NCBI GenBank assembly: GCA_001464055.1
Contig: LNET01000029.1
Span: 30,254-94,253, forward strand
DNA from: Burkholderiales bacterium Ga0077543
Lineage (GTDB): Bacteria; Pseudomonadota; Gammaproteobacteria; Burkholderiales; Burkholderiaceae_C
Length of the DNA stretch: 64,000 nt
Direction of reading: 5' to 3'
Shown here piece after piece: positions 11,103-27,316 of this stretch. Below the pieces are notes generated by a model, which was given only the letters and a program-made list of their open reading frames with translations, ran no database searches and was not told the origin of the DNA. The position numbers and the translations under genes are program-made. Numbering within the stretch: the first letter of the stretch is position 1; the number at the start of each line of letters is the position of its first letter.

Positions 11103-12284
11103 TCAGGCGCCGCGCCAGAGGGCGCGCAGCCGTGCGGCGCTGGCCGCGGTTTCCGGGGCGGCTTGCGCCAGGTGCCAGGCATGGCGGATCACAACGCCCA
11201 CCAGCAGCAGCAGCAGCGCTGCGCCGGCGCCGGCCAGGGCCGTGCGCAAGCGTCGCGGCTTGCTCTTCTTCTCTGGCGGCGTGGCGCTGTCCACCACCTG
11301 GATCAGCGCGCCTTCGCGGCTTTCGTCCAGACGCGCCAGTTCGAACTGGCGCGCCAGCAGTTCGAACAGCGTTTCCTGGTACTTGAACTCGCGATAGCGG
11401 CCGACATAGTCGCCCTGGCCGGCGGCGGCGGTGGCGGTGTCGGTGGCTTCCAGTCGCGCCAATTCGCTGCGCAGCGAACCGAGCACGGCCAACTGCTGCG
11501 CAATCTCGGGTGCGCTGTCGGTGAGCGTGCGGCGCAGGATCTGCAGGCGAACTTCGCCGGCGCTCAACTCGGCCTTCAGCCGCGCAAAACCCTCGGCCAC
11601 GGCCCTGGGTTCGGCGCGCAAGGCACTGGCATTGAAGCCGCTGGCCTGAAGCGACTGCTGCGCCTGCTCGAGCAGCTTGCGCGTCTGCTGCATCTGGCCT
11701 TCGAAGAACGCCCGGCGTTGCTGGGCTTCCGTCAACGCCAGTTGCGAAGACAGGCTGCGCAGTTCCTCGACATGGCGGTTGGCCAGCGCAGCGGCGCGGG
11801 CCGGGTCGGTGTCGTCCACCTCGACGCTGATCAGGCCGTCCTTCTTGCCGATGGCAATGCGCACGTTCCTGGCCAGTTCTTCGCGTGTGTCGCTGCGGTA
11901 TTTCTCGCCATACGCCTGCATCAGCTTGAAGTCGTCGATCAGCTTGTCGGTGATCGTGACGCTTTGCATCAGCGCGACGTACTGGTCGGCTGGCGTGCGC
12001 AGCGTGCCGCCTGCGCCGACCAGGCCCGACAACGCTCCCAGCGAGGCCAGCGCCGCCGTGGCCGCGCTCTGCGCCTGCTGTGGCGGCACGAAGCTGGTTC
12101 GCGCGGTGAACACCGGGGTGATGGCATAGGTGGCGCCCAGGGCCAGCAGCGCTGCCAGCAGTGGGCCCAGCAGCAGCAGCCAGCGGTGGCGCGCCACCAA
12201 CAGAACCAGGTCTACCCAGTTCGGGCCGCCCTCGGCGACCGGATGTTCCTGAACGGGGCTCACGTCAGTTCCTGAAGGTGGCAA
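11103..12284 (-). CDS. polysaccharide co-polymerase (Wzz/GumC-type chain-length determinant), no kinase domain
   Basis: N-terminal Wzz motif region VDLVLLVARHRWLLLLGPLLAALLALGATYAITPVFTA, a long central coiled-coil region, and a C-terminal TM ALAGAGAALLLLLVGVVI. An alternative GTG start at 12263 would avoid overlap with wza. Confidence 0.8.
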   Translation of the reverse strand: MPPSGTDVSPVQEHPVAEGGPNWVDLVLLVARHRWLLLLGPLLAALLALGATYAITPVFTARTSFVPPQQAQSAATAALASLGALSGLVGAGGTLRTPADQYVALMQSVTITDKLIDDFKLMQAYGEKYRSDTREELARNVRIAIGKKDGLISVEVDDTDPARAAALANRHVEELRSLSSQLALTEAQQRRAFFEGQMQQTRKLLEQAQQSLQASGFNASALRAEPRAVAEGFARLKAELSAGEVRLQILRRTLTDSAPEIAQQLAVLGSLRSELARLEATDTATAAAGQGDYVGRYREFKYQETLFELLARQFELARLDESREGALIQVVDSATPPEKKSKPRRLRTALAGAGAALLLLLVGVVIRHAWHLAQAAPETAASAARLRALWRGA

Positions 12285-14253
12285 CCGCCGCCAGGCCGAT
12301 GCCCAGCTGGTAGATGATCTGGGTCCAGTCCTTGGCGCTCTGCACGAAGGTCGTCTTGTTGATTTCCTCGGGCACGAAGATGGTGTCGCCCGGCATGGCC
12401 GGAATGCCCTTCAGTTCGCCGCTGCGCCAGAAACTGCTGCTCTGCAGGCCGCTGATGACGCTGCCGTTGGCACGGATGACGAATGCACTTTCGGTGTCGG
12501 CGCCACGGGTGGGGCCGCCGGCCAGGCGGAGATAGTCTTCGACCATGCGGCCTTCGTTGAACAGGTAGCTGCCGCCGTTGAAGACGCTGCCGAACACGCC
12601 GATGGTGGTGGCGCGCGGCGGGATGTAGAGGCGGTCGCCGTCTTCCAGCGCCAGGTCGGGCAGTTCGGCCTGGCCGGGTTGCATCTGCAGCACCACGCGG
12701 CCCGTGGGCTTGATGGCCCGCAAGCGTTCGATGAGCCGGCCCGAGGCGCTGCCCCGGGCCGTCGCGGCCGCAGCCTCGTCGGCGTTGGACGTGCGCTGCG
12801 TGGTGGCGGCTCGCGTGAATTCGGTTTCCAGGTCGCGCAGTGCGCGTTCGTAGTTGTCCTGCTGCGTCACGCGCACGCTCTCGCGGCTGAACTCCGCACC
12901 GAACAGGAAGGCTGCAGGGGTCAGCCCGCCTGCCGCGCGCATGGCGTCGGCGATCGAGCTGTTCGGTGGTAGCACGTATTCGCCCGGCCTTTGCACTTCG
13001 CCGTCGATGCGCACACGCTTGTTCTGGCGCTGGATGGGCAGGCTGGCTTCGACCGCGCTGAAGGCGCGCATCACGTCGCCGTGGGTCAGCGGGGTGTCTT
13101 CGCTGGCGGGCAGGGCAAATTCGCGAATGCGCACGTCGCTGCGGTCGCCCAGACGTTCCAGCGTCAGCCGGCTGCGGTCGGCCAGCGCCGAAAAGCCGCC
13201 AGCCATGGCGACCACGTCCTTGATCGTCTCGCCCGCCTTGATCTCGAAGATGGCCGGCTGGTTGATGCTGCCGATCAGCGCCACCTGGGGGCCCACCGGC
13301 CCGACCTGGATCACGTCGTCGGGTTGCAGCACGCGGTCGGCGCTGCGGTCGCCCTTCAAGAGGAAGTCGTACAGGTCGAAGGTGGCCAGCACCTTGCCGT
13401 CGCGCCGCAGCACGACGTTGCGGAAGCTGCCGGCCGGGCTGGGGCCACCCGCATTCATGAGCGCCGCAGTCAGTGTCGACAGGCTGGTGACGCTGTAGGA
13501 CCCGGGTCGCGCGACATAGCCTGTGACGAAGACGCGCAGGCCACGCAGCCGCCCCAGCGACGCGCTGAGCTCGAAGTTGCGGAAGACCTGGGCCACGCGC
13601 CTGGAGATCGTGTCCGACAGGTCGGCATAACGCACGCCCGACACGAAGATCGGGCCGACGCGTGGAATCGCGATCCGGCCGCTGCGGTCCACCACGGCCC
13701 GCACTTCGGCGTCGACCGAGCCCCAGAGCGTGACCAGGATTTCATCGCCAGGCTTGATCAGATAGTCGGGCGGGACCAGCGGGTTGTCTTCGGCAGCGCT
13801 GGTGTCGTCGGCGCGATTCAGGAAGTCGACACCAAAACGCCTGATGCGCGGCACGCGGGCGAGGTCCTGGCCCGCCTGGGCATCGCCGTCGCCGCGCGAT
13901 GCGCGTGCCGTGCCCGAACTCGGGTCCAGCAACCTCTGCACGTAGCGTTCGAACTCGCTCGGCGGTGCTTCGGCCGCAGGCGTGGGCATCACTGGCTGGA
14001 GCGGCAAATAACCCGGTGCATAGAAGCCAGGTGCGGCCGGCTGGCTGGTCCCACCCGCGTTGCCCGTGCTGGCTGGGGGGACAGCCGGCAGCGCAGGCCG
14101 CAGGCGCACCGGACCGCTGGGGTTGACGCTGGCCTCGGGTGTTCCGGTCGTGGCCGTCTGGGCATGCGCCGCTGGCAGGCTCAGGCCCAGCGCCATCGAT
14201 AGCGCCATCAAGAGCGCCAGGGCCGGGCGCAGGCGGGAGGTGGAGGTCGGCAT
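12265..14253 (-). CDS. outer-membrane polysaccharide export protein (OPX; Wza/KpsD family)
   Basis: Signal peptide ...LSLPAAHAQ, export motif YLIKPGDEILVTLWGSVD, and several repeats of the G.V..PG.Y SLBB-like pattern. Confidence 0.85.
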   Translation of the reverse strand: MPTSTSRLRPALALLMALSMALGLSLPAAHAQTATTGTPEASVNPSGPVRLRPALPAVPPASTGNAGGTSQPAAPGFYAPGYLPLQPVMPTPAAEAPPSEFERYVQRLLDPSSGTARASRGDGDAQAGQDLARVPRIRRFGVDFLNRADDTSAAEDNPLVPPDYLIKPGDEILVTLWGSVDAEVRAVVDRSGRIAIPRVGPIFVSGVRYADLSDTISRRVAQVFRNFELSASLGRLRGLRVFVTGYVARPGSYSVTSLSTLTAALMNAGGPSPAGSFRNVVLRRDGKVLATFDLYDFLLKGDRSADRVLQPDDVIQVGPVGPQVALIGSINQPAIFEIKAGETIKDVVAMAGGFSALADRSRLTLERLGDRSDVRIREFALPASEDTPLTHGDVMRAFSAVEASLPIQRQNKRVRIDGEVQRPGEYVLPPNSSIADAMRAAGGLTPAAFLFGAEFSRESVRVTQQDNYERALRDLETEFTRAATTQRTSNADEAAAATARGSASGRLIERLRAIKPTGRVVLQMQPGQAELPDLALEDGDRLYIPPRATTIGVFGSVFNGGSYLFNEGRMVEDYLRLAGGPTRGADTESAFVIRANGSVISGLQSSSFWRSGELKGIPAMPGDTIFVPEEINKTTFVQSAKDWTQIIYQLGIGLAAVATFRN

Positions 14254-14378
14254 TCGAAAGAGGAGGACGGGCTGTCGGTGAACGCAGCGGCGCAGTGTAC
14301 CGGCGGCCCAGGAGTGTTCGACCGGTGGTCTGGCGCCCCCGTCAAGGGGGCCGAACGGGCCATGCCTACAATGAGCAA

Positions 14379-15494
14379 ATGGTCATGTTCGTCACCTGCC
14401 TGCTGGCTTTGCTTGCTTCACTGGTCGTGACGACCTGGGTGGTGCGCATCGGCAGCAACGAACCAGGGCGCATGGCCGACACCGATTTTTCAGGGCCGCA
14501 GAAATTTCACGAACGGCCTGTGCCGCGCATCGGCGGCCTGGGCATTGCAGCAGGGCTGTGGCTGGCGGCAGGCTGGCTGTGGCTGCAGAACCCGAAAGAC
14601 CTGGGCACGCCGGCGCTGCTGCTGCTGGCCTGCGGGCTGCCCGCCTTCCTGGCCGGGCTGGCCGAAGACGTCACCAAGCAGGTCAGTCCCGCGCAGCGCC
14701 TTTTCTGCACGGCGTTTTCTGCCGGGCTGGCCATCATCGTGCTGGACAACGCCATCACGCGCACCGACCTGCCCGGGTTGGACCTGCTGGTGGTCTACAC
14801 CCCTTTCGCCGCAGTACTGACCGTGGTAGCGGTGGCCGGCGTGGCAAATTCCATCAACCTCATCGACGGTTTCAACGGCCTGGCCTCGACCTGCGTGGCC
14901 ATCATGCTGGCCGGCCTGGCCTTCGTCGCCTGGCGGGTCGGCGACACCCTGGTGCTGTCGCTGGCACTGGCCGGCGTGGGTGCGGTGCTGGGCTTCCTGG
15001 TCTGGAACTTCCCGCGTGGCCTGGTGTTCCTGGGTGACGGCGGGGCCTACTTCCTGGGCTTTTATCTGGCGCAACTGGCCTTGCTGCTGCTGGCGCGCAA
15101 CCCGGCGGTGTCGCCGCTGTTTCCGCTGCTGCTGGTCATCTACCCGATTTTCGAAACGGTGTTCAGCATGTACCGGCGCAAGGTGCTGAAGGGCCGGCCC
15201 GTCGGCCAACCCGACGGCGCCCACCTGCACAGCCTGATCTTCAGGCGCTTCCTGCGCAGCGATTTCGCCAACCTCGACGTCGAAGAACGCACCCGCCGCA
15301 ATTCGATGACCTCGCCTTACCTGTGGCTGCTGTCGCTGCTGTCGGTGCTGCCGGCCGTGGTGTTCTGGGACAGCTCGGGCTGGCTGCTGGCGGGGGTGGT
15401 GCTGTTCGGTTTCAGCTACCTGGCGCTGTACTGGCGCATCGTGCGCTTCCGCGGGCCGCGCTGGCTGGCAGCAGCGCGCAGCGCCTCGCGCTGA
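14379..15494 (+). CDS. polyprenyl-phosphate HexNAc-1-phosphate transferase (WecA/MraY superfamily, GT4)
   Basis: MVMFVTCLL start at 14379. Motifs RIGGLGIAAGLW, VANSINLIDGFNGLAS, VFLGDGGAYFLGFYLA. Polytopic. Confidence 0.85.
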   Translation: MVMFVTCLLALLASLVVTTWVVRIGSNEPGRMADTDFSGPQKFHERPVPRIGGLGIAAGLWLAAGWLWLQNPKDLGTPALLLLACGLPAFLAGLAEDVTKQVSPAQRLFCTAFSAGLAIIVLDNAITRTDLPGLDLLVVYTPFAAVLTVVAVAGVANSINLIDGFNGLASTCVAIMLAGLAFVAWRVGDTLVLSLALAGVGAVLGFLVWNFPRGLVFLGDGGAYFLGFYLAQLALLLLARNPAVSPLFPLLLVIYPIFETVFSMYRRKVLKGRPVGQPDGAHLHSLIFRRFLRSDFANLDVEERTRRNSMTSPYLWLLSLLSVLPAVVFWDSSGWLLAGVVLFGFSYLALYWRIVRFRGPRWLAAARSASR

Positions 15495-15515: not shown

Positions 15516-16211
15516 CTACTTCGTGGGCGTCACCTTGCCGTCGGCGGCTTGCTGAAGCTGGTCGGGCTGGTGCACGCTCAGCATGTCGCCGGTTCGCGTG
15601 ATCACCTTCATGCCCTGAAGGAATTGCAGCGTGCGCGTCACGGTTTCACGGCTGGTGTTCACCATGATGGCGATTTCCTGGTGCGTGGGCGGCGTCACGA
15701 TCTCGACAGTCCCGTCCTTGCCTTGACGGGCCAGCAGCAGCAGTTGTGCGCAGACGCGCTGGAACGAGCTGGGCAGGGCCAGCAGTGCGCGGTGACCCGC
15801 CGCGCGCCGCATGCGGTCTGCCAGGCGGGTGGCCACGGCCTCGGCGCCGCGGGGTGTCGAGAACATCAGGTCCCGGGCTTGTTCCCGGTCCAGGAAAGTC
15901 ACCCTGGAGGGCGCCACCGCGATCACGTATTCCGGCGCTGGTTTGCCGTCGATCACCGACAGTTCACCGAAAAAGTCGCCTTCGGTGATGAAGTCAGCGC
16001 CTACTTCCTTTCCGTCCAGCGTGAAATTGACGGTTTGAAGGCGGCCTTCGATCAGGAAGCCCAGGCCGGCGTCAGACTCGCCGCGGCGCACGATGACCTC
16101 CCGACGCTCCACGCGGCGCTCGGTCATGGTCTGCGCCACTTGAGCCAGCTTGTCGACAGGCAGCTGCTCGAAGAGGCGCAGCCCCTGGAGGATCGGTATC
16201 AGAATGGTCAT
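15516..16211 (-). CDS. Crp/Fnr-family transcriptional regulator
   Basis: cNMP-binding-like fold (FGELSVIDGKPAPEYVIAV) and a C-terminal HTH VNTSRETVTRTLQFLQ. Start MTILIP at 16211. Confidence 0.85.
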   Translation of the reverse strand: MTILIPILQGLRLFEQLPVDKLAQVAQTMTERRVERREVIVRRGESDAGLGFLIEGRLQTVNFTLDGKEVGADFITEGDFFGELSVIDGKPAPEYVIAVAPSRVTFLDREQARDLMFSTPRGAEAVATRLADRMRRAAGHRALLALPSSFQRVCAQLLLLARQGKDGTVEIVTPPTHQEIAIMVNTSRETVTRTLQFLQGMKVITRTGDMLSVHQPDQLQQAADGKVTPTK

Positions 16212-16249: not shown

Positions 16250-16265
16250 TGTGACGCACAACACA
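16250..16265. promoter_or_regulatory. CRP-like box TGTGA-N6-ACACA (9/10 to TGTGA-N6-TCACA)
   Basis: Read directly: tgtgacgcacaacaca, in the 128-bp divergent region between the Crp-like gene and the FecR-domain gene. Confidence 0.4.
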
Positions 16266-16339: not shown

Positions 16340-17704
16340 ATGACCATGAGCTTTCGAACTTCCTTGAACGCCTTGCCGCTGGCCGCAGCGCTGTTGGGGC
16401 TGATGGCTGCTTCAGTGAGCGCGCCCGTATTTGCGCGTGACGCCGTCGAGGTCGGCCATGTCAGCCTGCTCATCGGCCAGGCGCGCGTTTTCCGCCCCGA
16501 CGGTTCTTACCAGACACTGCAGCGTGGCAGCCAGGTGCACGTGGGCGACCGCATCGAGACCTCGGCCAACGGGCATGTGCACATGCGTTTTGTCGACAAT
16601 GCGGCGGTCAGCGTGCGGCCGCAAAGCAGCCTGGAGGTTCAGGCCTACCACTACAACGCTGCCCGCCCCGAACTCAGCGAAGTCCGCCTGCGGGTGGAAA
16701 AAGGCGTGACCCGGTCGATTTCCGGCGCCGCCACCGAAGTCGACAAGTCCCGCTTCAGGCTGAACACGCCGCTGGCCGCCATCGGCGTTCGCGGCACCGA
16801 CTTCATCGTGCAGACCGACGCCACGGGTGTTCGGGCCACCGTGTCAGACGGCGCCATCGTGGTCGGCGCCCTGGGCGACGGCTGTCTGGCAGCCGGGCTG
16901 GGCCCATGCGCCGGGGCCCAGGTGCTGTCGACCGACATGAGCGGCCTGATGGCCGAAATCCGCCAGGGCGAAACCGGCACGCGGCTGGTCCCTGCCGTCG
17001 ACCTGTCCGTGGCCCAGGCCGGCTCGCGCCGTGAGGCCGATGGCAGCGTTCCGGCCCTGCAGATGGCCCAGGTCCGTGCCTCGGGTCTGGCCGCCGCGAA
17101 GCCGACCAGCCTGGAAGTGGAGCGCGGCAACGACACGGCCGCGGCCGAATTGCTGACGCTGGCCGCCGTGCGTGTGCCCAATCTGAACCGCAGCAGCGAC
17201 CTGGGCGACCAGCTCATCTGGGGCCGCTGGGGCGTGATGCCCGAAGAAGGCGACAAGCTCAGCATGCCCTTTGCGCTGGCCCGACTGGGCCGCCACGTCA
17301 CCGTGGCCGACGAAGCCGCCGGCCTGTTCCGCGCCGACCAGACCGTTCCCGGCCAGTTGTTCCCCGCGTCGCTGCAAGGCACCGTCGAATTCAGCCTGAA
17401 CCGCGCCACGGCCGTGTTCGAGCAAGGCAACGTCGTCCAGCCTGCACTCATCAGCGCCAGCAACCTGACGGTCGACTTCACCCGCCGCACCTTCGCCACC
17501 GGTCTCGACCTCACCTCGGCTTCGGGTTTGAAGGGCGAGCTTCGGGTCGCTGGCGGAATCCGACCCGACGGCATCTTCACCGTGGCCGACTCCAACCAGT
17601 TCGTGTCGGGTGCCTTGTCGCTCGATGGCAAGGAAGCCGGCTATCTGTTCGAACGCCAGACCGAAGGCGGCCTGTTCCGGGGCCGGACGCTCTGGGGTCG
17701 CTGA
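16340..17704 (+). CDS. secreted FecR-domain protein with a C-terminal TbpB-like beta-barrel signature
   Basis: Signal peptide MSFRTSLNALPLAAALLGLMAASVSAPVFA. FecR motifs IETSANGHVHMRFVDNAAVSVRPQSSL and AAIGVRGTDFIVQ. C-terminus NLTVDFTRRTFATGLDL...VSGALSLDGKEAGYLFERQTEGGLFRGRTLWGR. The start is ATG 16340 or 16346. Confidence 0.8.
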   Translation: MTMSFRTSLNALPLAAALLGLMAASVSAPVFARDAVEVGHVSLLIGQARVFRPDGSYQTLQRGSQVHVGDRIETSANGHVHMRFVDNAAVSVRPQSSLEVQAYHYNAARPELSEVRLRVEKGVTRSISGAATEVDKSRFRLNTPLAAIGVRGTDFIVQTDATGVRATVSDGAIVVGALGDGCLAAGLGPCAGAQVLSTDMSGLMAEIRQGETGTRLVPAVDLSVAQAGSRREADGSVPALQMAQVRASGLAAAKPTSLEVERGNDTAAAELLTLAAVRVPNLNRSSDLGDQLIWGRWGVMPEEGDKLSMPFALARLGRHVTVADEAAGLFRADQTVPGQLFPASLQGTVEFSLNRATAVFEQGNVVQPALISASNLTVDFTRRTFATGLDLTSASGLKGELRVAGGIRPDGIFTVADSNQFVSGALSLDGKEAGYLFERQTEGGLFRGRTLWGR

Positions 17705-17748: not shown

Positions 17749-19881
17749 ATGCAGCTCTGGCGCAAGCATCCCAGCCTGCTGCGTGTGGCTGCATTGCTGC
17801 TTTCCGCGGTGGCGGCCCTGCTGCCGACGGTCCTGGCGCCCACGGCTGTCGTCGGCGTCGAGGAAATCGTCGGTGACGCCTCCTGGCGCTGGGGAGCCAG
17901 CAGCCGCGCCGAGAAACGCATCGTCCTCGTCGACATCGACGAAAAAAGCCTGAGGGCCGTCGGTCCCTGGCCCTGGCCCCGGTCGACGGTGGCCGAGTTG
18001 TCGTCGCGCCTGTCTGCGGCAGGCGCTGCCGTGCAGGCCTACGACATCATCTTCTCCGACCCCCGTGCCGGTGACGACGCGCTTGTGGCGGCCTGGACCC
18101 GTCCACGGTCCCCGGTGGTCGCGGCGCAGCTGTTTGCCATCGAGTCCGGCGCTGCATCGAGCACTGGCGTGGTGTCGGGTGCAGTCAGCACGCCAGGCTG
18201 CCCGGCTTTTGCGCCCACGGCTTTCGGCTCCTACGGGCTGGCCCCTGAACTGCTGGCGGCGCGCCCCTCGCTCGGTCACATCACGCCGCGCGTCGACGAC
18301 GACGGCGTCATCCGGCATGTGCCGGCCCTGATCTGCGACCAAGGGCGCGCCTACCCGACCCTGGCTTTGAGCACCCTGTGGCAGTTGGCGCAGCCCGCAG
18401 ACCTGGCTTCCGCCCGTTCCAACGCCCCCGACTGGGAGTGGCACCGGGCTGGCGCGGGAGTTCCCAGCCCGTTTCCGGCGGGCCTGGCGCCTGCGGCCTG
18501 GCTCAGCTCGCGCAGCCTGCCCGGCGTGGCCGTGCCGCTGGACGGGCAGGGCAACATCCGCGTGCCCTATGCACTGAAGCGCGATGCCTTCATCGCCATT
18601 TCGGCCGTCGACGTTCTGCAAGGCAGCGCCGACCTGGCCTTGCTGCGCGGTGCCGTGGCGCTGGTGGGTGCCACGGCCTTCGGCATGGGAGACACCGTCG
18701 CCACCCCGCATGGTGCCGTGGCCTCCGGCATCGAGGTGCACACCCAGGGCCTGGTGGGCCTGCTCGACAACCGGCTGGCCTACACGCCCGCGCTGTGGCC
18801 CCTTTGGCAGCTGGTCCTGATGAGCGTGTTCGCGCTCTTGCTGCTGGCCCTGGCCAGTCGCAGCAAGGGCGTGCCTGCCAAACGCCTGCCGCTGGTCGGG
18901 CTCGTCCTGTCGGTGGGCATCGTCGTGGCGGCGGGGCTGGTGCTGCTGAAGACCAGCCTGTGGTTGCCGTGGCTGCCGCTGGCGGCTTTTGTGCTGCTGG
19001 CGTCGATCAGCCTGGCCACCGTCGAACACGCGCTGACCCGGGCCCAGCGCGAACGCCTGTCGGCCCATCTCGGGGCCTACCTGCCGGCGCCGGTGGCCAC
19101 ACGCCTGATGGCCACCGAGCCCAGCGGCCAGCTGCAGCTCGAGGCCAGAACCGTCAGCGTGCTGGTTGCCGACATCCGCAACTTCACGGCCCTGGCCACG
19201 CATGGCCAGCCCGACGAAGTGGCCGCCTTGCTGCACGCCTTCTGCTGCCAGGCCGTGGACGTGGTCGAACGCCACGGCGGCGTGGTGGAGAATGTCGTCG
19301 GTGACTCCATCCTTGCGGTCTGGCCTGAATCAGGCGGTTCCGAACAGCAGCATGCCCGGCAAGCGCTGGCGGCGGCCCAGGAACTGGTGCGCAGCACGCG
19401 CCAGCTCCTGGCCAGCCGCGAGCCGGTTGCCGAGCACAGCCCGATCCAGCCCCTGGCCCTGGGCATCGGGCTCGAGACCGGGGTCGCCATCGTCGGATCG
19501 TTCGGGCCGGCGCGCAGGCGCGCGCACGCCGCCCTGGGCGAACCCGTGAGCGTTGCCCACCGCCTTCAGCAGATGACCGCCGACCTTTCCATGCCCATCA
19601 TCCTTGGTCCGCAACTCGCGGCCCTGCTCGAACCCGATGCCACCGAACCCCTGGGCGAATACCTGCTGGAGGGCTTGGCCAAGCACTACCGGCTGTATGC
19701 GCCGCTGGGCTGGTCCGACCTGATTGCCGTCGATTCGCAGTGGGCCAGCACGGCGGCGGGCACAGCTGACAAACAGGCCGAGCCCGCGGAATGGTCGAAA
19801 TGGGGGGCCACCAGCAGCCCCATCTGGCCGCATTCGACATCCAGCCGACTGCAACAGGTTCTCGGGCGCAGGGGCGCGTGA
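17749..19881 (+). CDS. CHASE2-domain membrane sensor fused to a class III adenylate/guanylate cyclase domain
   Basis: CHASE2 start IVLVDIDEKSLRAVGPWPWPRSTVAEL, hydrophobic helices around aa 330-420, and cyclase motifs VSVLVADIRNFTAL and VVGDSILAVW. Confidence 0.85.
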   Translation: MQLWRKHPSLLRVAALLLSAVAALLPTVLAPTAVVGVEEIVGDASWRWGASSRAEKRIVLVDIDEKSLRAVGPWPWPRSTVAELSSRLSAAGAAVQAYDIIFSDPRAGDDALVAAWTRPRSPVVAAQLFAIESGAASSTGVVSGAVSTPGCPAFAPTAFGSYGLAPELLAARPSLGHITPRVDDDGVIRHVPALICDQGRAYPTLALSTLWQLAQPADLASARSNAPDWEWHRAGAGVPSPFPAGLAPAAWLSSRSLPGVAVPLDGQGNIRVPYALKRDAFIAISAVDVLQGSADLALLRGAVALVGATAFGMGDTVATPHGAVASGIEVHTQGLVGLLDNRLAYTPALWPLWQLVLMSVFALLLLALASRSKGVPAKRLPLVGLVLSVGIVVAAGLVLLKTSLWLPWLPLAAFVLLASISLATVEHALTRAQRERLSAHLGAYLPAPVATRLMATEPSGQLQLEARTVSVLVADIRNFTALATHGQPDEVAALLHAFCCQAVDVVERHGGVVENVVGDSILAVWPESGGSEQQHARQALAAAQELVRSTRQLLASREPVAEHSPIQPLALGIGLETGVAIVGSFGPARRRAHAALGEPVSVAHRLQQMTADLSMPIILGPQLAALLEPDATEPLGEYLLEGLAKHYRLYAPLGWSDLIAVDSQWASTAAGTADKQAEPAEWSKWGATSSPIWPHSTSSRLQQVLGRRGA

Positions 19882-21368
19882 ATCGGCGGTCCCGACGGGA
19901 CGGCGCCCTTCGCAGGCGTCAGGTTCCTTTCGTGGTGCGTGCGGCGGCCGCAGTGTCGACCCTGGGGCTGGCGTCGATCTCGGCCGTGCTGGCCCAGACG
20001 CCCGCCCAGGTGGCCCCCGAACCAGCTGCTGCGCCCAGCCCGCAAGCAGCCGACCCGCGCAGCGAGTGCGCGCGGCTGGCGCCAGCCGCCTGGCCTGGCG
20101 GCACCGCCACACGCCGGCTTCACATTGCCAGAATGCGCCTGGGCTTGCGCGCATGCATCGGCGACGCCGACTTCCTGGCCGCTTTCGGCGGCCTGCTGCT
20201 CGAAGACGGCGAACACGCCGAGGCGCTGACCTGGCTGGAACGGGCGGTGCTGCTGGACCCAGGAAACCTGGGCGTGCAGGCCGACCATGCGCTGGCGCTG
20301 GACGCCCTGGGCGAACCGGCCGCGCTGCGCGAGCTGGCGGCCCGGCTGCTGGTGCGCAGCGACCTGCCGGCGGCGCTGCGCGCCAAGCTCAGCCCGCCTG
20401 ACGATGCCTCTCGCTTCCAGCTGCCACAGGCCCGACTGGGCGCGCCCCTTGCGCAGCGCCAGACCTGGGGTTTCCAGGGCGAAGTCCAGCTGCAGCTGGG
20501 GTACGAAAGCAATCTCGACCGCTCGCCCAGCCTGACGGAACTGACACTGTCCATCCCGGAAGGGCCGCTGGTGCTGCCCGTCATCAGCACACCCCGCAAG
20601 GCGGCCGCAAGCCTGGCGTCGGCAGCCCTGCAACTGGGCTATGCGCCAGTCGCGGGCGTGGTGCTGCGCTCGGGTCTGAACATGAATTCGCGACGTTCGC
20701 TGGCGGAGCCCGAGACCGACTGGCGCCAGGTCCAGTGGGTACAGCAGCTGGCCATCGGCGGCAAAAGCTGGAGCGGCCTGCTCGACGGCAGTGCATCCTG
20801 GGTCAGCGGGCCGCTGAACGAACCTTATCGGCTGCTGCGGCTGGGTGCAGCGTTGGACGCGGCGTCCAACGGCTGCCGGGGGCGGCTGTCCTATGTGCAC
20901 GAACAGAGGGAGCAGGCGCAAAGCACCCAGCTCGACGCCTCGACCTCCGTCTGGGCAGCCGACATCCGCTGCGCGCTGCCCTTCGCACCGACCTGGGCCC
21001 TGTCTGCAGCCTACAGCCAGGGGCAGGACCGTCCGGAATCCGCGACGCGCCCGGGCGGCATGCAACGCTTGCAGGGTGCAGGCCTGCGGCTGGCAGGCCC
21101 CGTGGCCGGGCGCACCCAGCTCGACCTGGGCCTGCGTCTGAGCCGCGTCAAGGACGAAACGGGTTTCAGCGCGCTGCTGGAGCAAAACGCCGTGCGCTGG
21201 CTGCGGCTGCACCAGTTCAGCGCCGAACTGCAGCAGCCGCTGGACGATTTCGGCTGGAAGGGCTTGTCGGCAACGCTTCAATGGCAGCAGGTGAACCAGG
21301 AAAGCAACCTCAAGCTTTTCAGCTACCGCGCCGATAGCGTTTACGCCGGTCTGCGATGGGCATGGTGA
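19878..21368 (+). CDS. outer-membrane protein with N-terminal TPR and C-terminal beta-barrel; Slam/DUF560-like candidate
   Basis: GTG 19878 overlaps the cyclase stop (GTGA). Signal-like AAAAVSTLGLASISAVLAQ, TPR GEHAEALTWLERAVLLDPGNLGVQADHALAL, barrel onset FQGEVQLQLGYESNLDRSP, and an aromatic C-terminus YAGLRWAW. Confidence 0.6.
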   Translation: MNRRSRRDGALRRRQVPFVVRAAAAVSTLGLASISAVLAQTPAQVAPEPAAAPSPQAADPRSECARLAPAAWPGGTATRRLHIARMRLGLRACIGDADFLAAFGGLLLEDGEHAEALTWLERAVLLDPGNLGVQADHALALDALGEPAALRELAARLLVRSDLPAALRAKLSPPDDASRFQLPQARLGAPLAQRQTWGFQGEVQLQLGYESNLDRSPSLTELTLSIPEGPLVLPVISTPRKAAASLASAALQLGYAPVAGVVLRSGLNMNSRRSLAEPETDWRQVQWVQQLAIGGKSWSGLLDGSASWVSGPLNEPYRLLRLGAALDAASNGCRGRLSYVHEQREQAQSTQLDASTSVWAADIRCALPFAPTWALSAAYSQGQDRPESATRPGGMQRLQGAGLRLAGPVAGRTQLDLGLRLSRVKDETGFSALLEQNAVRWLRLHQFSAELQQPLDDFGWKGLSATLQWQQVNQESNLKLFSYRADSVYAGLRWAW

Positions 21369-21735: not shown

Positions 21736-24700
21736 ATGGCATTTATCAATACCGTAGTCGCACGCGCCGCAGCCGGGATCTGGGGTCTGAAGTTGGGCTA
21801 CGCCACGACGCAAGCCGTGCTGGGTCAGTTCAACGCGAACGGTGGCAACCTCGACGTCATCATCAACAACGCGTTCAACGCCAGCTACACGGGCGTGAGC
21901 AACGCTGCCGTTGCAGCGATGGTCGTGGGCAACCTGGGTCTGACGGGTGCAGCCGCCACCGAAGCCACCACATTCCTGGTGGCGCAGATGGACTCCGTGG
22001 CGCCTACCGCCCGTGGTGCCATCCTGACCAACGCCATCAACCTGTTCGCCGGTCTGGGCACCAACCCCGCCTTCGGCGCTTCGGCCAACGACTTCAACGC
22101 CAAGGTCGCCGCTGCCGCTGCCTACTCGGGCACCATCGGCAACCCCGACGCCGTCCTGGGCAACCTGCCTTCGGCCACCAGCTTCTTCATGCTGACCGGC
22201 CAGGACAACATCACCGCCACGGCCGGCAACGATACGATCAACGCCTACATCTTCGACAACGCCAACACGCTGCAAAGCGGTGACTTCGTCGACGGTGGTG
22301 CCGGTACCGACACGCTGTACGCCGACATGGGGAACTCAGCCACTCAGGCGGTCACCCCCATCACGCGAAACATCGAAACCTTTGTTGTCCGTGCACAGTC
22401 CCGTGCAACCGAATCTGGCGACAACAACGTTTCCAACGAGAACCGCGTCACCATCGATGCCGAGCGCATGGTCGGCGTGAACCGCTTCGAGTCGAACAAC
22501 AGCCGCGCCGACCTCATCGTCGAAGACGTGCGCATCCTGCCGGCGCAGATCACGAAGGACATCACGATCGCCTTCACGCAAAGCGATCCGGGTAACGTCG
22601 ACTTCGGCGTGTACTTCGACCAGGCTTCGCTGCGTGCCAACAGCACCAGCAGCTCGTCGCTGACCCTGCAGGTCATCGACCTGAAGGCCGCCGGTGCTGC
22701 CGCCACTGCCGCCACCCCGCTGCTGGACTCGCCGTACGACGGCATCAGCTTCACGCTGAACGGCACCCTGGTCTTCCTGACCAGCCCGGCCATCGGCAAT
22801 GCCACCACCTACCCGGCACTGCTGTCCGCCATCCAGGCGCAGCTGGCTGCCAACGTCCTGACCGCGGGTGTCGTCACCGCCGCCCTGGGCAGCACCTTCA
22901 CGGTGAATGACTCGCAGACCCTGGCTGCCGTCACCGGCACCTCGATCGTGCTGTCGGCCACCAATGCCACCTTCGGCATCGGCAACTGGATCGCCTCGCA
23001 AGGCGTGCCGGCCAACTCCAACCTGTTCACCAACCAGTTCGCCGGTTCTTCGGCCACGAACGACCTCGTGACCAGCACCATCATCCTGGACGACGTGGGC
23101 CGTGGCAGCACGGGCGGCGACCTGGTCATCGGTGGCCTGTCGGTCGGTGAAACCTCGACCTCGCGTGGTGTCGACCGCTTCGAAATCACCGTTGAGCGCA
23201 CCAGCCGCCTGCAGAACGTCGACTCGACCAACAACTGGCTGAAGGAAGTCGTTCTGAAGAACGGCACTGCCAGCGGCAACGTGTCGATTCTGGGCAATGC
23301 CGGCGGCGCCGTCACCGGTGCCCCCAACAACGCCGCCAGCCAGGCCGGCGCGCTGCCTGGTGCTGTCGCTCAGCACGACGACTTCGGCTTCAACGACGTT
23401 CGCCTGATCGACGCTTCCGCGATGCGCGGCACGGTCACGTTCGACGCCGCTGTTACGGCCGCTTCGTTCGCCAAGTACATCCTGACCCGCGACACCCAGC
23501 CGAACCCGGCCGGCGACAACACCTCCACCCCGGGCCAGACCACGCAAGTGGCTGACTTCATCTACACCGGTGGTGTGGGCAACGACAGCATGACGGTCGC
23601 CATCGACTCTGGCATTGCCAGCAGCCGCAACACCATCATGTCCGGCCGTGAAGACTTCACGTTCAACCTGGCAGGTGGTGCCGGCAACGACACCATCAGC
23701 GTCCGCATCGACCCGCTGAATGGTGGCTTCCAGAACTGGTACAACAACCAGAAGCTGAACGCCAACGTCCGCATCGACGGCGGTGACGGCAACGACACCA
23801 TCCGTACCCCGGGTGCTGGCGACGCCATCATCTTCGGCGGTTCGGGCACGGACACCATCTACGTCGACAACACCGGCACCCAGGCCATCAACCAGGGTTC
23901 GGAGAACGACGCAGGTCGCGTCTACGCTGCTGCCGCCGCCGCTGAACTGGCTGCTGCCAACGCTGCGCGCGCGCTGTCGAACAGCACCAGCGCCGCCGTG
24001 CTGCAGGCCCGTGAAGTCGCGCTGAACACGCTGAACCTGGTGACGCCCGTCAGCTTCACCGACCCGGCTGTTCCCGCCAACCCGAACCCGGCACTGCCCA
24101 CCAAGGGCGACCTGGAGACGGCCATCCTTGCCGCGTACAACGCCGGCATCACCGTCGCCGCCCCTGGCGCGCTGACGGCCGACCAGGTGGTGGCCCTGTT
24201 CACCGCCTACGGCACGCGGGTTGGATCGGCAGTCACCCCGGCAACGACGGTGATTGGCAACGCCACCTTCACGGCAGGCACGGCACCGGCATCCGCCACG
24301 CTGACGCTGGCCGAGTTCACTGCAGGCAACAACCTGCTGGAGTCGTACATCAATGCCAACCGCTCGGCTGCTGCAACCGCTGCTGCTGCTGATGCGGCCG
24401 TGGGCACGTACGCTCCGCTGCTGAACGCAACGCAGACCGACGTGGTGAACAACACCGTATTGGTCAGCGGTGCTTACGACGGCGCCGCCAGCGCTGCCGG
24501 TACTGCCACCATCCTGTCTGGTCTGCAAGCACTGAATGCGGCTCTGGTCCTGGGTGCGGCGCAGCCGGCCTGGATCGCTGCGCTGAAGACCGCAGTTGCG
24601 AACGGTTCGCGCACGGTGGCCGAGGCGCAGGCTCTCGAGACTGCAATCGGTGCCGGCGCTATCGACGCCGCTGACGTGACTGCCATCCAGCTCATCCTGG

Positions 24701-26382
24701 CTCCGGCGATCAACGCGGCAACGAACGCCAACACCACGGCCCAGGCCAACCTGACCGCTGCGATCAACGCCGACAACGCCGCTGTTCGTACGGCAGCGAA
24801 CTTTGCCGGTATCGACCCCGTCCTCGCGGACGCTGAGGCGGTTGCTCAGGACGCGGTGGGTTCGGCAGAGGCTATTGCCGCAGCCACTGCAGCAGCCAAC
24901 GCTGTCACCACGTTCACCGGCACGCCGACCACCGGCACGCTGGGTCCTTTGCTGGCTCAACAGTCGGGCCTCACGGCCCTGAGCGCAGCGCTGGCAGTGG
25001 GCGTGAGCGACCTGGACTTCCAGATCATCACCACCAACGCGGTGTTCAACAACGTCATCAACGGTGCGGCCAAGATCGCACTGGACGCTGTTGCAACGGG
25101 CGCTGCCGGCGTGCTGACACTGGTCGAAAAGGTCAACCAGGTCGACGTGCAAATCGCGGCGCTGCAACGCACCAGCAACGTTGCGGTGGCCGATGCACAG
25201 GCCCAACTGGCGACTCTGCAGTCCATCGCTGCGGCTACGGCATTCGCCCGTGACCAGGCGGTTTCTGCCGCCGAAGGCTTTGTCGCAGGCACCACGGCTG
25301 GTACCAGCAACGCTGTCTGGGTGTTGAACACTTCCAACCAGTTGGCAGTGTCGACCGCACCGGGCTCGGGCTACGCACTGGCTGTGAACGATGAGCGCAA
25401 CATCTTCGATCTGCGCTCGGATCTGAACAACTCGTACAACCTGTTCGCGACCCGCCTGACGGTGGACTTCAAGGGCCTGACTTCGGTGGTGACGGTGCCC
25501 AGCACCAACTACCGTACCAGCGACCTGCAGGTGAACCAGGCCATTAAGGACGCCATCAACAACAACGCGGTGCTGAACAAGCTCATCGTTGCGGCTGACG
25601 GCCCCGCGAACAGCCTGACCATCACCTCGCTGATCGACGGTCAGGCGACTGAAGCCAACCTGAGCATCACGATTGCTGTCCCCGTCGTGGGTGCTGTGGC
25701 TCCTTCCGACATCTCGGCTGCAGCCGCCGTTTACGGCGTTGCTGCAAACGAAGGTGCGGTTCTGGCTGCGATGGCCACTGCGAAGCAGGCTTTCGACACC
25801 AAGGGCGACTACACCGACCGCTTCGCCGAAACCGGCGCACTGGGTGGCAACACCGAAGTGCGCGGTGCGGCCAGCGTCAGCACCAGCGACAACACCGTCA
25901 CCCCGGGTGCTGACAACGACGTCATCGTTCTGGGCACGACTTCGGGCAGCACGGCCCTGTTGTCGAGCAACGACATGGTGGTGTTCGGTGCGGCCTTCGG
26001 CAACGACACGATCGTTCACTTCCGCGCCGGCTCGCTGGCTACGGGTGGTGACGTCCTGAACTTCGCTGCGCTGGGTGGCACGACCCTGTCGACCGCGTTC
26101 GACGTGAACCGCTCGGTGAACGTGGCTGAAGAAGTCGCGGCCACCAACGGCACGGCCGCACTGGTTGCAGCCCTGTTCACCGACTCGGCCACTGCGAAGA
26201 CGCACGTGTACATCGCTTTCGACGCTGCCACCAACGTCGGCAAGGTCTATGCCGTGACCGACGCCGCTGGCGTGGGCGCAGGCAGCGTTTCGGCCACCCT
26301 GGCCGGCACGATCGACCTGGCCGATACGCTGTGGTCTTCGTTGACCACCGACAACTTCGGCAGCGTCCTGATGGGCGGCTGA
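21736..26382 (+). CDS. 1548-aa secreted repeat protein with RTX-type Ca-binding motifs; S-layer protein candidate (RsaA-like) and T1SS substrate
   Basis: No Cys and very few Lys/Arg/His; Ala/Thr/Asn/Gly/Val-rich. GGxGxD motifs (DGGAGTDTLYAD, TGGVGNDSM, AGGAGNDTI, DGGDGNDTI, GGSGTDTIY). C-terminus ...AKTHVYIAFDAATNVGKVYAVTDAAGVGAGSVSATLAGTIDLADTLWSSLTTDNF is typical of uncleaved T1SS signals. Strong SD, strong terminator, and a T1SS immediately downstream. Confidence 0.85.
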   Translation: MAFINTVVARAAAGIWGLKLGYATTQAVLGQFNANGGNLDVIINNAFNASYTGVSNAAVAAMVVGNLGLTGAAATEATTFLVAQMDSVAPTARGAILTNAINLFAGLGTNPAFGASANDFNAKVAAAAAYSGTIGNPDAVLGNLPSATSFFMLTGQDNITATAGNDTINAYIFDNANTLQSGDFVDGGAGTDTLYADMGNSATQAVTPITRNIETFVVRAQSRATESGDNNVSNENRVTIDAERMVGVNRFESNNSRADLIVEDVRILPAQITKDITIAFTQSDPGNVDFGVYFDQASLRANSTSSSSLTLQVIDLKAAGAAATAATPLLDSPYDGISFTLNGTLVFLTSPAIGNATTYPALLSAIQAQLAANVLTAGVVTAALGSTFTVNDSQTLAAVTGTSIVLSATNATFGIGNWIASQGVPANSNLFTNQFAGSSATNDLVTSTIILDDVGRGSTGGDLVIGGLSVGETSTSRGVDRFEITVERTSRLQNVDSTNNWLKEVVLKNGTASGNVSILGNAGGAVTGAPNNAASQAGALPGAVAQHDDFGFNDVRLIDASAMRGTVTFDAAVTAASFAKYILTRDTQPNPAGDNTSTPGQTTQVADFIYTGGVGNDSMTVAIDSGIASSRNTIMSGREDFTFNLAGGAGNDTISVRIDPLNGGFQNWYNNQKLNANVRIDGGDGNDTIRTPGAGDAIIFGGSGTDTIYVDNTGTQAINQGSENDAGRVYAAAAAAELAAANAARALSNSTSAAVLQAREVALNTLNLVTPVSFTDPAVPANPNPALPTKGDLETAILAAYNAGITVAAPGALTADQVVALFTAYGTRVGSAVTPATTVIGNATFTAGTAPASATLTLAEFTAGNNLLESYINANRSAAATAAAADAAVGTYAPLLNATQTDVVNNTVLVSGAYDGAASAAGTATILSGLQALNAALVLGAAQPAWIAALKTAVANGSRTVAEAQALETAIGAGAIDAADVTAIQLILAPAINAATNANTTAQANLTAAINADNAAVRTAANFAGIDPVLADAEAVAQDAVGSAEAIAAATAAANAVTTFTGTPTTGTLGPLLAQQSGLTALSAALAVGVSDLDFQIITTNAVFNNVINGAAKIALDAVATGAAGVLTLVEKVNQVDVQIAALQRTSNVAVADAQAQLATLQSIAAATAFARDQAVSAAEGFVAGTTAGTSNAVWVLNTSNQLAVSTAPGSGYALAVNDERNIFDLRSDLNNSYNLFATRLTVDFKGLTSVVTVPSTNYRTSDLQVNQAIKDAINNNAVLNKLIVAADGPANSLTITSLIDGQATEANLSITIAVPVVGAVAPSDISAAAAVYGVAANEGAVLAAMATAKQAFDTKGDYTDRFAETGALGGNTEVRGAASVSTSDNTVTPGADNDVIVLGTTSGSTALLSSNDMVVFGAAFGNDTIVHFRAGSLATGGDVLNFAALGGTTLSTAFDVNRSVNVAEEVAATNGTAALVAALFTDSATAKTHVYIAFDAATNVGKVYAVTDAAGVGAGSVSATLAGTIDLADTLWSSLTTDNFGSVLMGG
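23563..23880 (+). repeat. cluster of RTX-like nonapeptide (GGxGxDxUx) repeats inside the large protein
   Basis: YTGGVGNDSMTVAID...LAGGAGNDTISVRID...IDGGDGNDTIRTPGAGDAIIFGGSGTDTIYVDNTG. A further single motif lies at about 22279-22335. Confidence 0.6.
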
Positions 26383-26431
26383 TCCCGACCGTGATGTCGC
26401 CCTCTCCGCCAGGCGGGGGCGACTCACTACA

Positions 26432-26603: not shown

Positions 26604-27316
26604 CCGTGCTCCACATCCGCCTGCAAACCACGCCGGCCCAGCATGCCCGGCTGCTGGAGCTACAGGCTGCCTTCGCGCAGGTCTGCAATGCGCTGGCACC
26701 CGTGGTGCAGCAAACCGGCTGCTGGAATCGCGTGGGTCTGCATCACCTGGCTTACCGGGCCATGCGCGAACAATTTCCGGCCCTGGGCTCGCAGATGATC
26801 TGCAATGCCCTCTATTCGGTGTCCCGGGCTTCGCGCTGGGTCTATCAGCATCCCAGCAGCCCCTTCAACCTCACCCGTCTGGCGGGCAGGCCTCTGCCCA
26901 GGCTGCAGTTCCTGCCGCAGTCGCCGGTCTACTTCGACCGCCACACGCTGAGCCTGCGCGACGGCGTTGCGTCGATGTACACGCTGGACGGACGCATGCG
27001 CTTCAACCTGCCTCTGGCACCCGTCGACGAACAGCGTTTTCGTACCGCCCGCCTGCGCGAAGTGGTACTGCTGTTCCGCGACAACCAGTTCCAGCTGAGC
27101 TTCACCTTCGGCGACGGCGCCGAGCCATCTGCCAGCGTGCCTGGCGCCGAAGGCGAGGAGGGCGCCGCCCTGTCCACGTCCGAACGCGAAGCTGCAGCCG
27201 ACGAAATGCCCCATTACCTGCTTGTCCTGCACGGCCCCACCGTGCCTGAAAGCCCGATCCCTGAAGCCGCCAGGCTGCCTGCCGCGCCCCCCCGACAGAA
27301 CCGAACTGCCCCATGA
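26597..27316 (+). CDS. hypothetical protein resembling the N-terminal (WED/REC, HTH_OrfB_IS605-like) part of IS200/IS605 TnpB; no RuvC or Zn-ribbon region
   Basis: VLHIRLQTTPAQHARLLELQAAFAQVCNAL; LGSQMICNALYSVSRASRWVY; ARLREVVLLFRDNQFQLSFTF, followed by an acidic/Pro-rich tail. Host-like GC-rich codons. Stop overlaps the ABC start (ATGA 27313-27316). Alternative starts are TTG 26537 and TTG 26585. Confidence 0.55.
   Translation: MNSVLHIRLQTTPAQHARLLELQAAFAQVCNALAPVVQQTGCWNRVGLHHLAYRAMREQFPALGSQMICNALYSVSRASRWVYQHPSSPFNLTRLAGRPLPRLQFLPQSPVYFDRHTLSLRDGVASMYTLDGRMRFNLPLAPVDEQRFRTARLREVVLLFRDNQFQLSFTFGDGAEPSASVPGAEGEEGAALSTSEREAAADEMPHYLLVLHGPTVPESPIPEAARLPAAPPRQNRTAP

Follow-up and report, generated by a model that had tools for sequence, protein, structure and literature searches.

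The 64,000-nucleotide stretch of Burkholderiales bacterium Ga0077543 analysed here (contig LNET01000029.1, positions 30,254 to 94,253 of the forward strand; hereafter the window) carries a cassette of four genes that encode a FecR-domain protein with a predicted C-terminal β-barrel (the FecR-barrel protein), a CHASE2 cyclase, a putative outer-membrane protein (OMP) named ORF3, and a divergently transcribed Crp-like regulator. We describe these genes and evaluate the possibility that the FecR-barrel protein and ORF3 form a pair resembling the cargo and translocon of the type 11 secretion system (T11SS, Slam).

The four-gene cassette and its conservation

The FecR-barrel gene (16346..17704) encodes 452 amino acids (aa) and runs on the plus strand from the ATG at 16346 to the stop codon at 17704. 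After a gap of 44 nt it is followed by a gene for a fusion of a CHASE2 sensor with a class III adenylate/guanylate cyclase (17749..19881, plus strand; PF05226, E 3e-41; PF00211, E 4e-8), in which the CHASE2 domain occupies aa 34-367 (17848-18849, plus strand) and the cyclase domain aa 467-613 (19147-19587, plus strand). The nucleotide-specificity position of the cyclase, located before the G-D motif, is usually an adenine-specifying Lys or a guanine-specifying Glu; read by eye, this region is E-N-V-V-G-D, and therefore the product may be cAMP or cGMP. The third gene, ORF3 (19878..21368, plus strand), begins with a GTG that shares the sequence GTGA (19878-19881) with the cyclase stop codon; this overlap suggests translational coupling, and an alternative GTG start at 19932 fits the 478-aa product called in the protein database.

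In the opposite orientation lies the gene for a 231-aa cyclic-nucleotide-binding regulator of the Crp/Fnr family (15516..16211, minus strand, ATG at 16211), in which Pfam recognised PF00027 (cNMP_binding, E 7e-17) and PF13545 (HTH_Crp_2, E 3e-15). The promoter region shared by the two divergent genes contains a Crp-box-like palindrome, TGTGACGCACAACACA (16250..16265, no strand assigned; consensus TGTGA-N6-TCACA). A box with at least 9 of the 10 consensus positions was present in 92 of 98 related loci, compared with a mean best of 6.7 positions in shuffled regions, and it takes the form TGTGAYGCA-N3-CACA in Burkholderiales and TGTGAT-N5-ATCAC in a marine clade. The conservation of this box between the Crp-like and FecR-barrel genes suggests autoregulation by the cyclic-nucleotide (cNMP) regulator of the cassette.

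To determine how far the gene order is conserved, we used the C-terminal domain of the FecR-barrel protein to scan 185,579 species-representative genomes and obtained 50 loci, which with few exceptions carry Burkholderiales labels (Rubrivivax, Ideonella, Aquabacterium, Inhella, Pseudaquabacterium). A metagenome scan with an alignment of a distant sub-clade, ~33% identical to the window protein in the C-terminal domain, yielded 80 loci, mostly marine by their record names. Counting only loci long enough to judge, the CHASE2 cyclase was the next gene after the FecR-barrel gene in 40/41 genome and 49/49 metagenome loci (89/90), an ORF3-like OMP followed two genes downstream of the FecR-barrel gene in 37/38 and 38/38 (75/76), and the Crp-like gene was upstream and divergent in 46/46 and 46/46 (92/92). 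Three further contigs agree with this order. The hosts of the cassette are free-living freshwater, soil and marine bacteria; cultivable ones include Ideonella sp. A 288, Inhella proteolytica, Pseudaquabacterium terrae and Aquabacterium humicola.

Export signal and N-terminal part of the FecR-barrel protein

The FecR-barrel protein begins with a Sec (SPI-type) signal peptide without a lipobox, MSFRTSLNALPLAAALLGLMAASVSAPVFA (16346..16435, plus strand), which is its only hydrophobic segment; the cleavage site was placed from the sequence and from homologues rather than with a dedicated predictor. The Sec-type signal sequence is conserved among the homologues, which present AxA-type sites immediately before a conserved VGxVSLLIG motif and no true lipobox; the signal peptides of family members are of the SPI type.

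The signal peptide is followed by a FecR-type β domain (aa 34-173; 16445..16864, plus strand) that was modelled confidently by AlphaFold2 and that matches PF04773 (E 2e-12, aa 68-171); in a Foldseek search with the full-length model, PupR (6ovk) matched this part with a target-normalised TM-score (TMt) of 0.52. The mature N-terminus, aa 34-103 (16445-16654), resembles the retention module of LapA and MpIBP: it matched NF033682 at E 8e-8, with a score of 32.6 bits that is below the NCBIfam cut-off of 50 bits, and 5ix9 at E 9.5e-5 in a PDB profile search, and 5ix9 superimposed on its first ~63 residues in Foldseek with a TMt of 0.79 and an rmsd of 0.8 Å over 63 columns. This likeness may simply reflect a fold common to FecR domains. 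The nearest named FecR-domain relatives in NCBIfam were Leptospira Lsa33 ('surface adhesin', E 4e-13) and the lipoprotein LipL45 (E 2e-11), both far below the cut-offs of that library, and no LysM domain was found by Pfam in the protein or in the relatives scanned.

A Cys180/Cys188 pair, invariant in 53 homologues, follows the FecR domain and precedes a poorly conserved A/P/S/T-rich linker (aa 189-289; 16910..17212, plus strand) of low model confidence, with pLDDT values of 38-69 across much of its length. Across the family, the linker between the Cys pair and the C-terminal domain has a minimum of 71 and a median of about 105-115 residues.

Predicted fold of the C-terminal domain

A sequence-only reading of the window had proposed that a FecR-domain protein ends, at 17350 to 17704, in a peptide with the signature of a TbpB-type barrel. 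Such a peptide is indeed present, as the translation of 17351-17704, GQLFPASLQGTVEFSLNRATAVFEQGNVVQPALISASNLTVDFTRRTFATGLDLTSASGLKGELRVAGGIRPDGIFTVADSNQFVSGALSLDGKEAGYLFERQTEGGLFRGRTLWGR followed by the stop codon, is the C-terminal end of the protein assigned above to PF04773. The proposed start is one base out of frame: the codons begin at 17351, and 17350-17704 reads as a wrong-frame peptide.

We modelled the full-length protein with AlphaFold2 from a 53-sequence alignment (mean pLDDT 76.5). Secondary-structure assignment with DSSP placed four short strands (290-294, 306-308, 316-321 and 325-330; pLDDT 84-93) in a pedestal after the linker (aa 290-330; 17213..17335, plus strand), which includes a W292-G293-R294 motif whose W292 and G293 are invariant in homologues. 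The pedestal is followed by a predicted soluble β-barrel (aa 346-452 plus the stop codon; 17381..17704, plus strand) made of eight consecutive antiparallel strands (346-360, 363-377, 382-391, 396-404, 410-414, 418-424, 431-439 and 442-451; pLDDT 90-96), the last of which stops one residue short of the stop codon with no subsequent helix. AlphaFold, the check that the sequence-only reading had suggested for an eight-stranded barrel, thus predicted eight consecutive strands.

A Foldseek search of the PDB with the full-length model ranked TbpB (4o3z) first, at E 1.6e-5, followed by NmTbpB, other TbpBs, the LbpB N-lobe and fHbp, with lipocalins and anticalins below them. The terminal eight-strand barrel, with the four-strand sheet before it, is thus a high-confidence prediction, and it resembles the lobes of TbpB, LbpB and fHbp at the level of the fold. 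A membrane-embedded eight-strand OMP of the OmpA/OmpX type was considered and rejected, given that several strands have only 5-7 residues, that charges are found on both faces, that the C-terminal residue is non-aromatic, and that PorB was the only such protein among the fold matches, with a probability of 0.07.

Residues D377, F378, F383, T385, G409, F411, G422, F444, G446 and W450 were invariant among the 53 homologues, which share 51-78% identity, and F378 and G422 were still invariant among 148 sequences at about 26-55% identity. Since its residues are so strongly constrained, the C-terminal motif is more than a chance resemblance. The individual elements proposed for it fared unequally: the residues of the TbpB-like motif are conserved or invariant, the second G-x-F-x-G is reduced to G-x-F (DGIFTV), and the terminal G-x-F-x-G does lie on the last strand, whereas the 'GGFYGPxAEExGG' element of TbpB aligns by eye elsewhere, with GALSLDGKEAGYLF, the same segments being paired by hhalign.

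The C-terminal domain as a family and its sequence relationship to TbpB-type barrels

The C-terminal domain is not covered by public profile libraries. We built a profile from the C-terminal 170 residues; a search of 1.84 billion representative proteins with it returned 644 clusters (at 50% identity) at E<=1e-3 and 386 at E<=1e-10. The domain was C-terminal in all of the 150 best matches listed, and PF04773 was found by Pfam in 99 of 105 full-length members, with no other recurrent domain. Two distant members, P0164 (752 aa; loci L054 and L055) and P0167 (989 aa), are much longer and match the profile in two stretches. The P0164 locus retains the order of the Crp, FecR-barrel and CHASE2 genes with a CHASE2 protein for which no cyclase domain is recorded, and what follows resembles ORF3 only very weakly (E 4e-4).

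Sequence comparisons did not place the domain in a known barrel family. Searches of the C-terminal 117 or 168 residues against Pfam and NCBIfam returned nothing (in Pfam also nothing at E<=10), and profiles of three increasing breadths (A1, A3 and A6) retrieved no TbpB or fHbp chain from the PDB, the searches with the FecR-barrel family returning only the MpIBP retention module, at the N-terminus, and two chance matches. We also performed hhalign comparisons with the C-lobe barrels of TbpB M982/K454 (sequence 100% identical to 3ve1_A), with fHbp (an unconfirmed sequence) and with ten published cluster-3 cargo barrels. These were non-significant (E 0.006-0.14) and in some runs no better than reversed controls (0.14 versus 0.12; another run gave E 0.04). 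The significant profile match to TbpB_B_D or a lipoprotein-C-type barrel that the sequence-only reading had anticipated was thus absent from Pfam, PDB-profile and hhalign searches alike, and membership in either family by sequence was not found.

Below threshold, PF01298 (TbpB_B_D) matched 4/105 full-length and 3/66 C-terminal-only relatives (best E 0.0065); among the 24,736 families of Pfam it is the recurrent sub-threshold match, and it falls within the C-terminal domain. As a control, cluster-3 cargo barrels compared with TbpB gave E 0.087 in hhalign, and a PDB search with the cluster-3 cargo profile listed fHbp after GFP, with an E-value no better than 0.5, so accepted subfamilies also fail this comparison. 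The sequence tests against TbpB are therefore weak or uninformative rather than negative, and the claim that the C-terminal domain is of the T11SS-cargo type rests on its predicted fold and on its genetic context.

ORF3 as a candidate T11SS-like outer-membrane protein

AlphaFold2, hhalign and synteny suggest that ORF3 is a T11SS(Slam)-like OMP with a signal peptide, a helical TPR domain (aa 60-180; 20055-20417, plus strand) and a β-barrel (aa 196-495; 20463-21362, plus strand). Its model (pLDDT 83.7) contains 14 strands of 13-17 residues and a short, lower-confidence hairpin (219-237) after strand 1, because of which the strand count may be 14 or 16. Foldseek matched the fold to BcsC, CymA, OmpG and FadL; the 16-strand BcsC gave the best E-value, and the top target-normalised TM-scores belonged to the 14-strand OmpG (0.65) and to CymA (0.52-0.56).

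Pfam recognised only TPR families in ORF3, and TPR families were found in 33/36 members. PF04575 (DUF560) appeared in one of 36 close homologues, at E 0.0095, and in none of 18 more divergent ones, and there were weak matches to PF24575 (TPR_Slam) among the relatives. An iterated search of a word-indexed database with the ORF3 alignment found no distant relatives. We then compared ORF3 with a DUF560 reference set of 11 T11SS OMPs (marine cluster 3; PMC12282271, supplement 4), each limited to about 400 residues. A 36-sequence ORF3 alignment matched this set in hhalign with 85% probability (E 6e-6), and enlarging it to 80 sequences with syntenic genes from related loci raised the match to 97.3% (E 2.7e-11) over 307 collinear columns spanning the TPR and barrel domains. 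The barrel alone gave 95.6% (E 1.2e-8), the alignment starting at the first strand of both, and reversed-sequence controls gave 0.5-0.7%. ORF3 and the DUF560 OMPs have in common [ED]-S-N-[ILV]-[ND] after strand 1 and a W-x-G-G-like motif in the middle of the barrel.

Since the profile-profile match is significant, ORF3 is a remote homologue of T11SS OMPs that lies beyond Pfam's model and, because every member tested falls below the Pfam threshold, its group is a separate, more distant DUF560-related subfamily. The Slam-like OMP that the sequence-only reading had placed two genes from the FecR-barrel gene is thus supported by the TPR domain, the ~14 strands, the profile match and the near-constant co-occurrence of the two genes, with the qualification that Pfam does not score it as DUF560.

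Surrounding genes

The cassette is followed on the plus strand by a gene for a giant 1548-aa repeat protein (21736..26382), syntenic with the cassette and a probable substrate of a type 1 secretion system (T1SS), in which we found no Pfam, NCBIfam or PDB match and, by eye, GGxGxD-like repeats; a likeness to RsaA, also seen by eye, is not claimed in view of these empty searches. T1SS genes for an ABC transporter (27313-29106; PF00005/PF00664), an HlyD-family protein (30857-32239; PF13437) and a TolC-like protein (32236-33633; PF02321) lie downstream, all on the plus strand. In 17 genome loci, a homologue of the giant protein comes after ORF3. The marine loci have the three T1SS genes and the Crp-like gene together in one operon, which diverges from the rest of the cassette; the OMP gene is followed there by a gene for a protein of >1000 aa, which has RTX repeats in some copies. 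Loci with this gene set include L068, L069, L092, L117 and L130. That the CHASE2 cyclase, the Crp-like regulator with its box and the giant RTX-like protein with its T1SS all belong to one conserved unit was missed by the sequence-only reading.

The cassette lies in a surface-polysaccharide locus (11103-15494 and 34498-42266). Upstream are genes for a Wzz-like protein (11103-12284, minus strand), a Wza-like protein with Poly_export and SLBB domains (12265-14253, minus strand) and a GT4 glycosyltransferase (14139-15494, plus strand); downstream (34498-42266) are genes for an ABC-2 transporter, a PIG-L/methyltransferase fusion and a DUF4214 protein. Long antisense open reading frames, such as the one of 1363 aa opposite the giant gene (22336-26427, minus strand), were rejected as genes, being a usual artefact of DNA with about 68% G+C.

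No homologue of the Wza, Wzz or GT4 proteins of the window was found within ±8 kb in the marine loci, although the order of the four cassette genes is kept there. A reading of ORF3 as a polysaccharide porin of the BcsC/PgaA type was judged unlikely given its short TPR domain and about 14 strands, and it is further disfavoured by these same loci, in which ORF3 keeps its FecR-barrel and CHASE2 partners with no homologue of those polysaccharide genes found within ±8 kb.

Discussion

According to Grossman et al., all T11SS cargo have the layout of an effector, a pedestal and a C-terminal barrel (PMC12282271), and the predicted layout of the FecR-barrel protein, with an effector, a linker, a four-strand sheet and a terminal eight-strand barrel, is that of this scheme. 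In common with cargo such as TbpB, LbpB, fHbp, HpuA, hemophilin/HrpC, NilC and Pls, it has a Sec signal, a variable N-terminal effector and a sheet pedestal before an eight-strand barrel at the extreme C-terminus, and it is encoded near a gene for a TPR-barrel OMP. It differs from them in that it has no significant PF01298 or fHbp-type match, is non-lipidated, carries a FecR domain as effector and has a linker of about 100 residues; its partners are a CHASE2 cyclase and a Crp-like regulator, whereas those of T11SS cargo are TonB-dependent receptors and metal or haem uptake genes. ORF3 in turn resembles the DUF560/PF04575 OMPs (Slam1/2, NilB, HrpB and Ruegeria SPO1271) in its TPR domain of ~120-140 residues and its barrel of ~300 residues with 14 long strands, and differs from them in scoring below the Pfam threshold and in the short extra hairpin after strand 1, with which the strand count may be 14 or 16; its role as a translocon here is a prediction. 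The likeness to T11SS proteins together with the gene context leads us to propose that a T11SS-like cargo/translocon pair serves envelope-to-cNMP signalling within one conserved cassette, a proposal that we regard as evenly poised between right and wrong.

The proposed route would begin with Sec export of the FecR-barrel protein, after which the OMP would recognise its C-terminal barrel and, leading with the C-terminus, carry it into the outer membrane or across it, in the manner of Slam, which recognises a C-terminal motif of unfolded cargo and moves the cargo through its channel (PMC9090332). The FecR domain, on a linker of at least 70 residues, would act on the periplasmic CHASE2 domain, and the output of the cyclase, cAMP or cGMP, would set the activity of the Crp-like regulator. 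This regulator would bind the box in the promoter region of its own cassette and would probably also control the giant RTX-like protein, its T1SS and the surface polysaccharide genes. The idea of a signalling cargo, which the sequence-only reading had preferred to a nutrient-capture cargo, is made credible by the CHASE2 cyclase, the Crp regulator with its site, and the giant protein with its T1SS, since these share one conserved unit.

Several results weigh against this proposal. Pfam, PDB profiles and hhalign gave no significant sequence link of the barrel to TbpB_B_D, fHbp or cluster-3 cargo barrels, and lipocalins also match the fold. The query of the Foldseek search was the full-length model, so that the domain behind the TbpB matches is not separable, and the TM-scores of these matches were low (0.15-0.23), a consequence of alignments that span several domains. 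Regarding ORF3, none of 54 family members reached the PF04575 threshold and no solved Slam structure was among its fold matches. Finally, known T11SS cargo are exported whole, and a FecR domain that followed them would leave the periplasm in which CHASE2 is located.

In a further reading, the OMP would export only the pedestal and barrel, C-terminus first, the protein being threaded through the outer membrane with its barrel at the surface as a sensor and its FecR domain in the periplasm as a switch for the CHASE2 cyclase. This topology, which we put forward tentatively and consider rather unlikely, would arise because the FecR domain, with its disulfide bond and its likeness to a retention module, would fold in the periplasm and be unable to follow; the long linker, the disulfide-bonded N-terminal fold and the likeness to the LapA/MpIBP retention module make such a retained, threaded protein conceivable. 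The surface barrel would possibly then be a receptor or an anchor for the giant RTX-like protein.

Among the alternatives, we evaluated whether the FecR-barrel protein might be a periplasmic accessory whose barrel binds ligands in the manner of a lipocalin and offers a small molecule to FecR/CHASE2, the OMP serving as an entry channel or as a sensor in its own right. CHASE2 being periplasmic, a partner in that compartment is the simplest arrangement, lipocalins and anticalins match the fold with a probability of about 1.0 (E 1e-3 to 1e-2), a significant TbpB_B_D profile match is absent, and the closest solved barrels to ORF3 are 14-strand uptake channels such as CymA, OmpG and FadL. However, every lipocalin ranks below TbpB, LbpB and fHbp; lipocalins end in a C-terminal helix, which this barrel does not have, and a pedestal sheet comes before the barrel, as it does in T11SS cargo. 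In addition, ORF3 is homologous to the DUF560 translocons over both TPR and barrel domains, and the strict pairing of the C-terminal domain with the OMP across distant clades is what would be expected of a cargo and its translocon. Taken together, these observations make a periplasmic accessory unlikely.

The protein might instead be an ordinary T11SS cargo, exported whole, with a FecR domain that binds or adheres outside the cell and with a cyclase and Crp regulator that act on expression only. Verified T11SS cargo are all exported whole, and soluble, non-lipidated ones exist (PMC12282271). The nearest NCBIfam FecR relatives, at scores far below cut-off, are Lsa33 and LipL45, and the cassette is found among surface-structure genes. 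Against this stands the occurrence of FecR-domain genes upstream of CHASE2 sensors even where there is no T11SS-like OMP or barrel (PMC5192318), which argues for a direct periplasmic relationship between FecR and CHASE2. Moreover, the genes for cargo and OMP flank that of the cyclase, which appears translationally coupled to the OMP gene, and the disulfide-bonded N-terminal fold would need to stay unfolded for a Slam-type export. We accordingly assign a low probability to whole-protein export of this kind.

That the C-terminal domain is an unrelated small β domain with a convergent or chance TbpB motif, its neighbour serving polysaccharide export or the giant protein, would fit the non-significance of all TbpB-type sequence tests (some similar to reversed controls), the capture by PF04575 of PgaA-type polysaccharide porins as well (PMC8406197), the best E-value of BcsC among the fold matches of ORF3 and the richness of the locus in polysaccharide genes, but it is very improbable given that the sequence tests have low power even between accepted cargo subfamilies, that PF01298 recurs below threshold precisely in this domain, that a confident eight-strand prediction with TbpB-family proteins in the top ranks is hard to ascribe to chance, and that the four-gene order persists in marine loci that showed no homologue of the window's Wza, Wzz or GT4 genes within ±8 kb.

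The proposed signalling cassette can be compared with several known systems. FecR domains pass on outer-membrane events in FecA-FecR signalling, and the cassette would likewise place a periplasmic FecR-type domain, with the fold of the C-terminal signalling domain of PupR, between an OMP and a cytoplasmic transcriptional output. It is unlike FecA-FecR-FecI in that the output is a cyclase with a Crp-like regulator and in that the FecR-barrel protein has neither a transmembrane helix nor a cytoplasmic anti-sigma domain; with no ECF sigma factor and no TonB-dependent receptor or transducer found nearby either, we rejected the assignment of the protein as a canonical FecR anti-sigma factor.

The Crp-like regulator Clr of Sinorhizobium meliloti responds to both cAMP and cGMP. 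In this bacterium the outer-membrane barrel protein NsrA is needed for the CHASE2 cyclases CyaD1, CyaD2 and CyaK to activate Clr (PMC7529298, PMC13001267), and the secreted FecR-domain protein SMc02177 is a Clr target (PMC5498481). Both systems thus combine an OMP, an inner-membrane CHASE2 cyclase and a Crp-family regulator with a FecR-domain protein, which in S. meliloti is part of the regulon. NsrA is much larger than ORF3, with its barrel placed at aa 600-1200; the S. meliloti FecR-domain gene is not required for signal perception, and no T11SS-type barrel has been reported on SMc02177.

Burkholderia encodes secreted FecR-domain proteins next to, and upstream of, CHASE2 sensors (PMC5192318), and this 'BiofilmReg'/COG4254 arrangement is like the cassette in that a secreted FecR-domain gene directly precedes a CHASE2 sensor gene in a surface or biofilm locus. 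There, the protein has an N-terminal LysM domain for peptidoglycan binding, the CHASE2 sensor is a histidine kinase and the fourth gene encodes DUF4136, whereas the cassette has a predicted C-terminal T11SS-type barrel, a cyclase output and a DUF560-like OMP as the fourth gene; P. aeruginosa has a related two-gene version of the LysM-FecR and CHASE2 arrangement. The retention-module-like N-terminus and the presence of a giant RTX-like protein and a T1SS in the conserved gene set recall the LapA/MpIBP systems, from whose adhesins the FecR-barrel protein differs in being exported by Sec and not as a T1SS substrate. In the literature searched, we found no instance of CHASE2 together with the terms DUF560, T11SS or Slam, and in the survey of T11SS cargo FecR figures only among regulatory elements, as a Pfam family that co-occurs, with CHASE2 and cyclases unmentioned. 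The best reading of the cassette is of a T11SS-like pair recruited to cyclic-nucleotide signalling, akin in logic to NsrA-CyaD/K-Clr with a different OMP.

To our knowledge, verified T11SS cargo come from animal-associated bacteria only and are nutrient binders or adhesins, and CHASE2 is a widespread sensor domain for which we know of no ligand or input mechanism. The results described here add an unannotated C-terminal domain family, comprising the 644 clusters (50% identity), together with an OMP subfamily that is related to DUF560 and missed by Pfam, and extend T11SS-like systems to free-living Burkholderiales and to a clade of marine metagenomes. The cassette is suggestive of a hitherto undescribed route by which the cell surface signals to cyclic nucleotides and offers a directly testable model of how a surface event could reach a CHASE2 receptor. 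If the FecR-barrel protein is indeed threaded through the outer membrane, a type 11 secretion system would for the first time be seen to serve signalling, and the physical connection that has been missing between CHASE2 receptors and the outer membrane would be provided.

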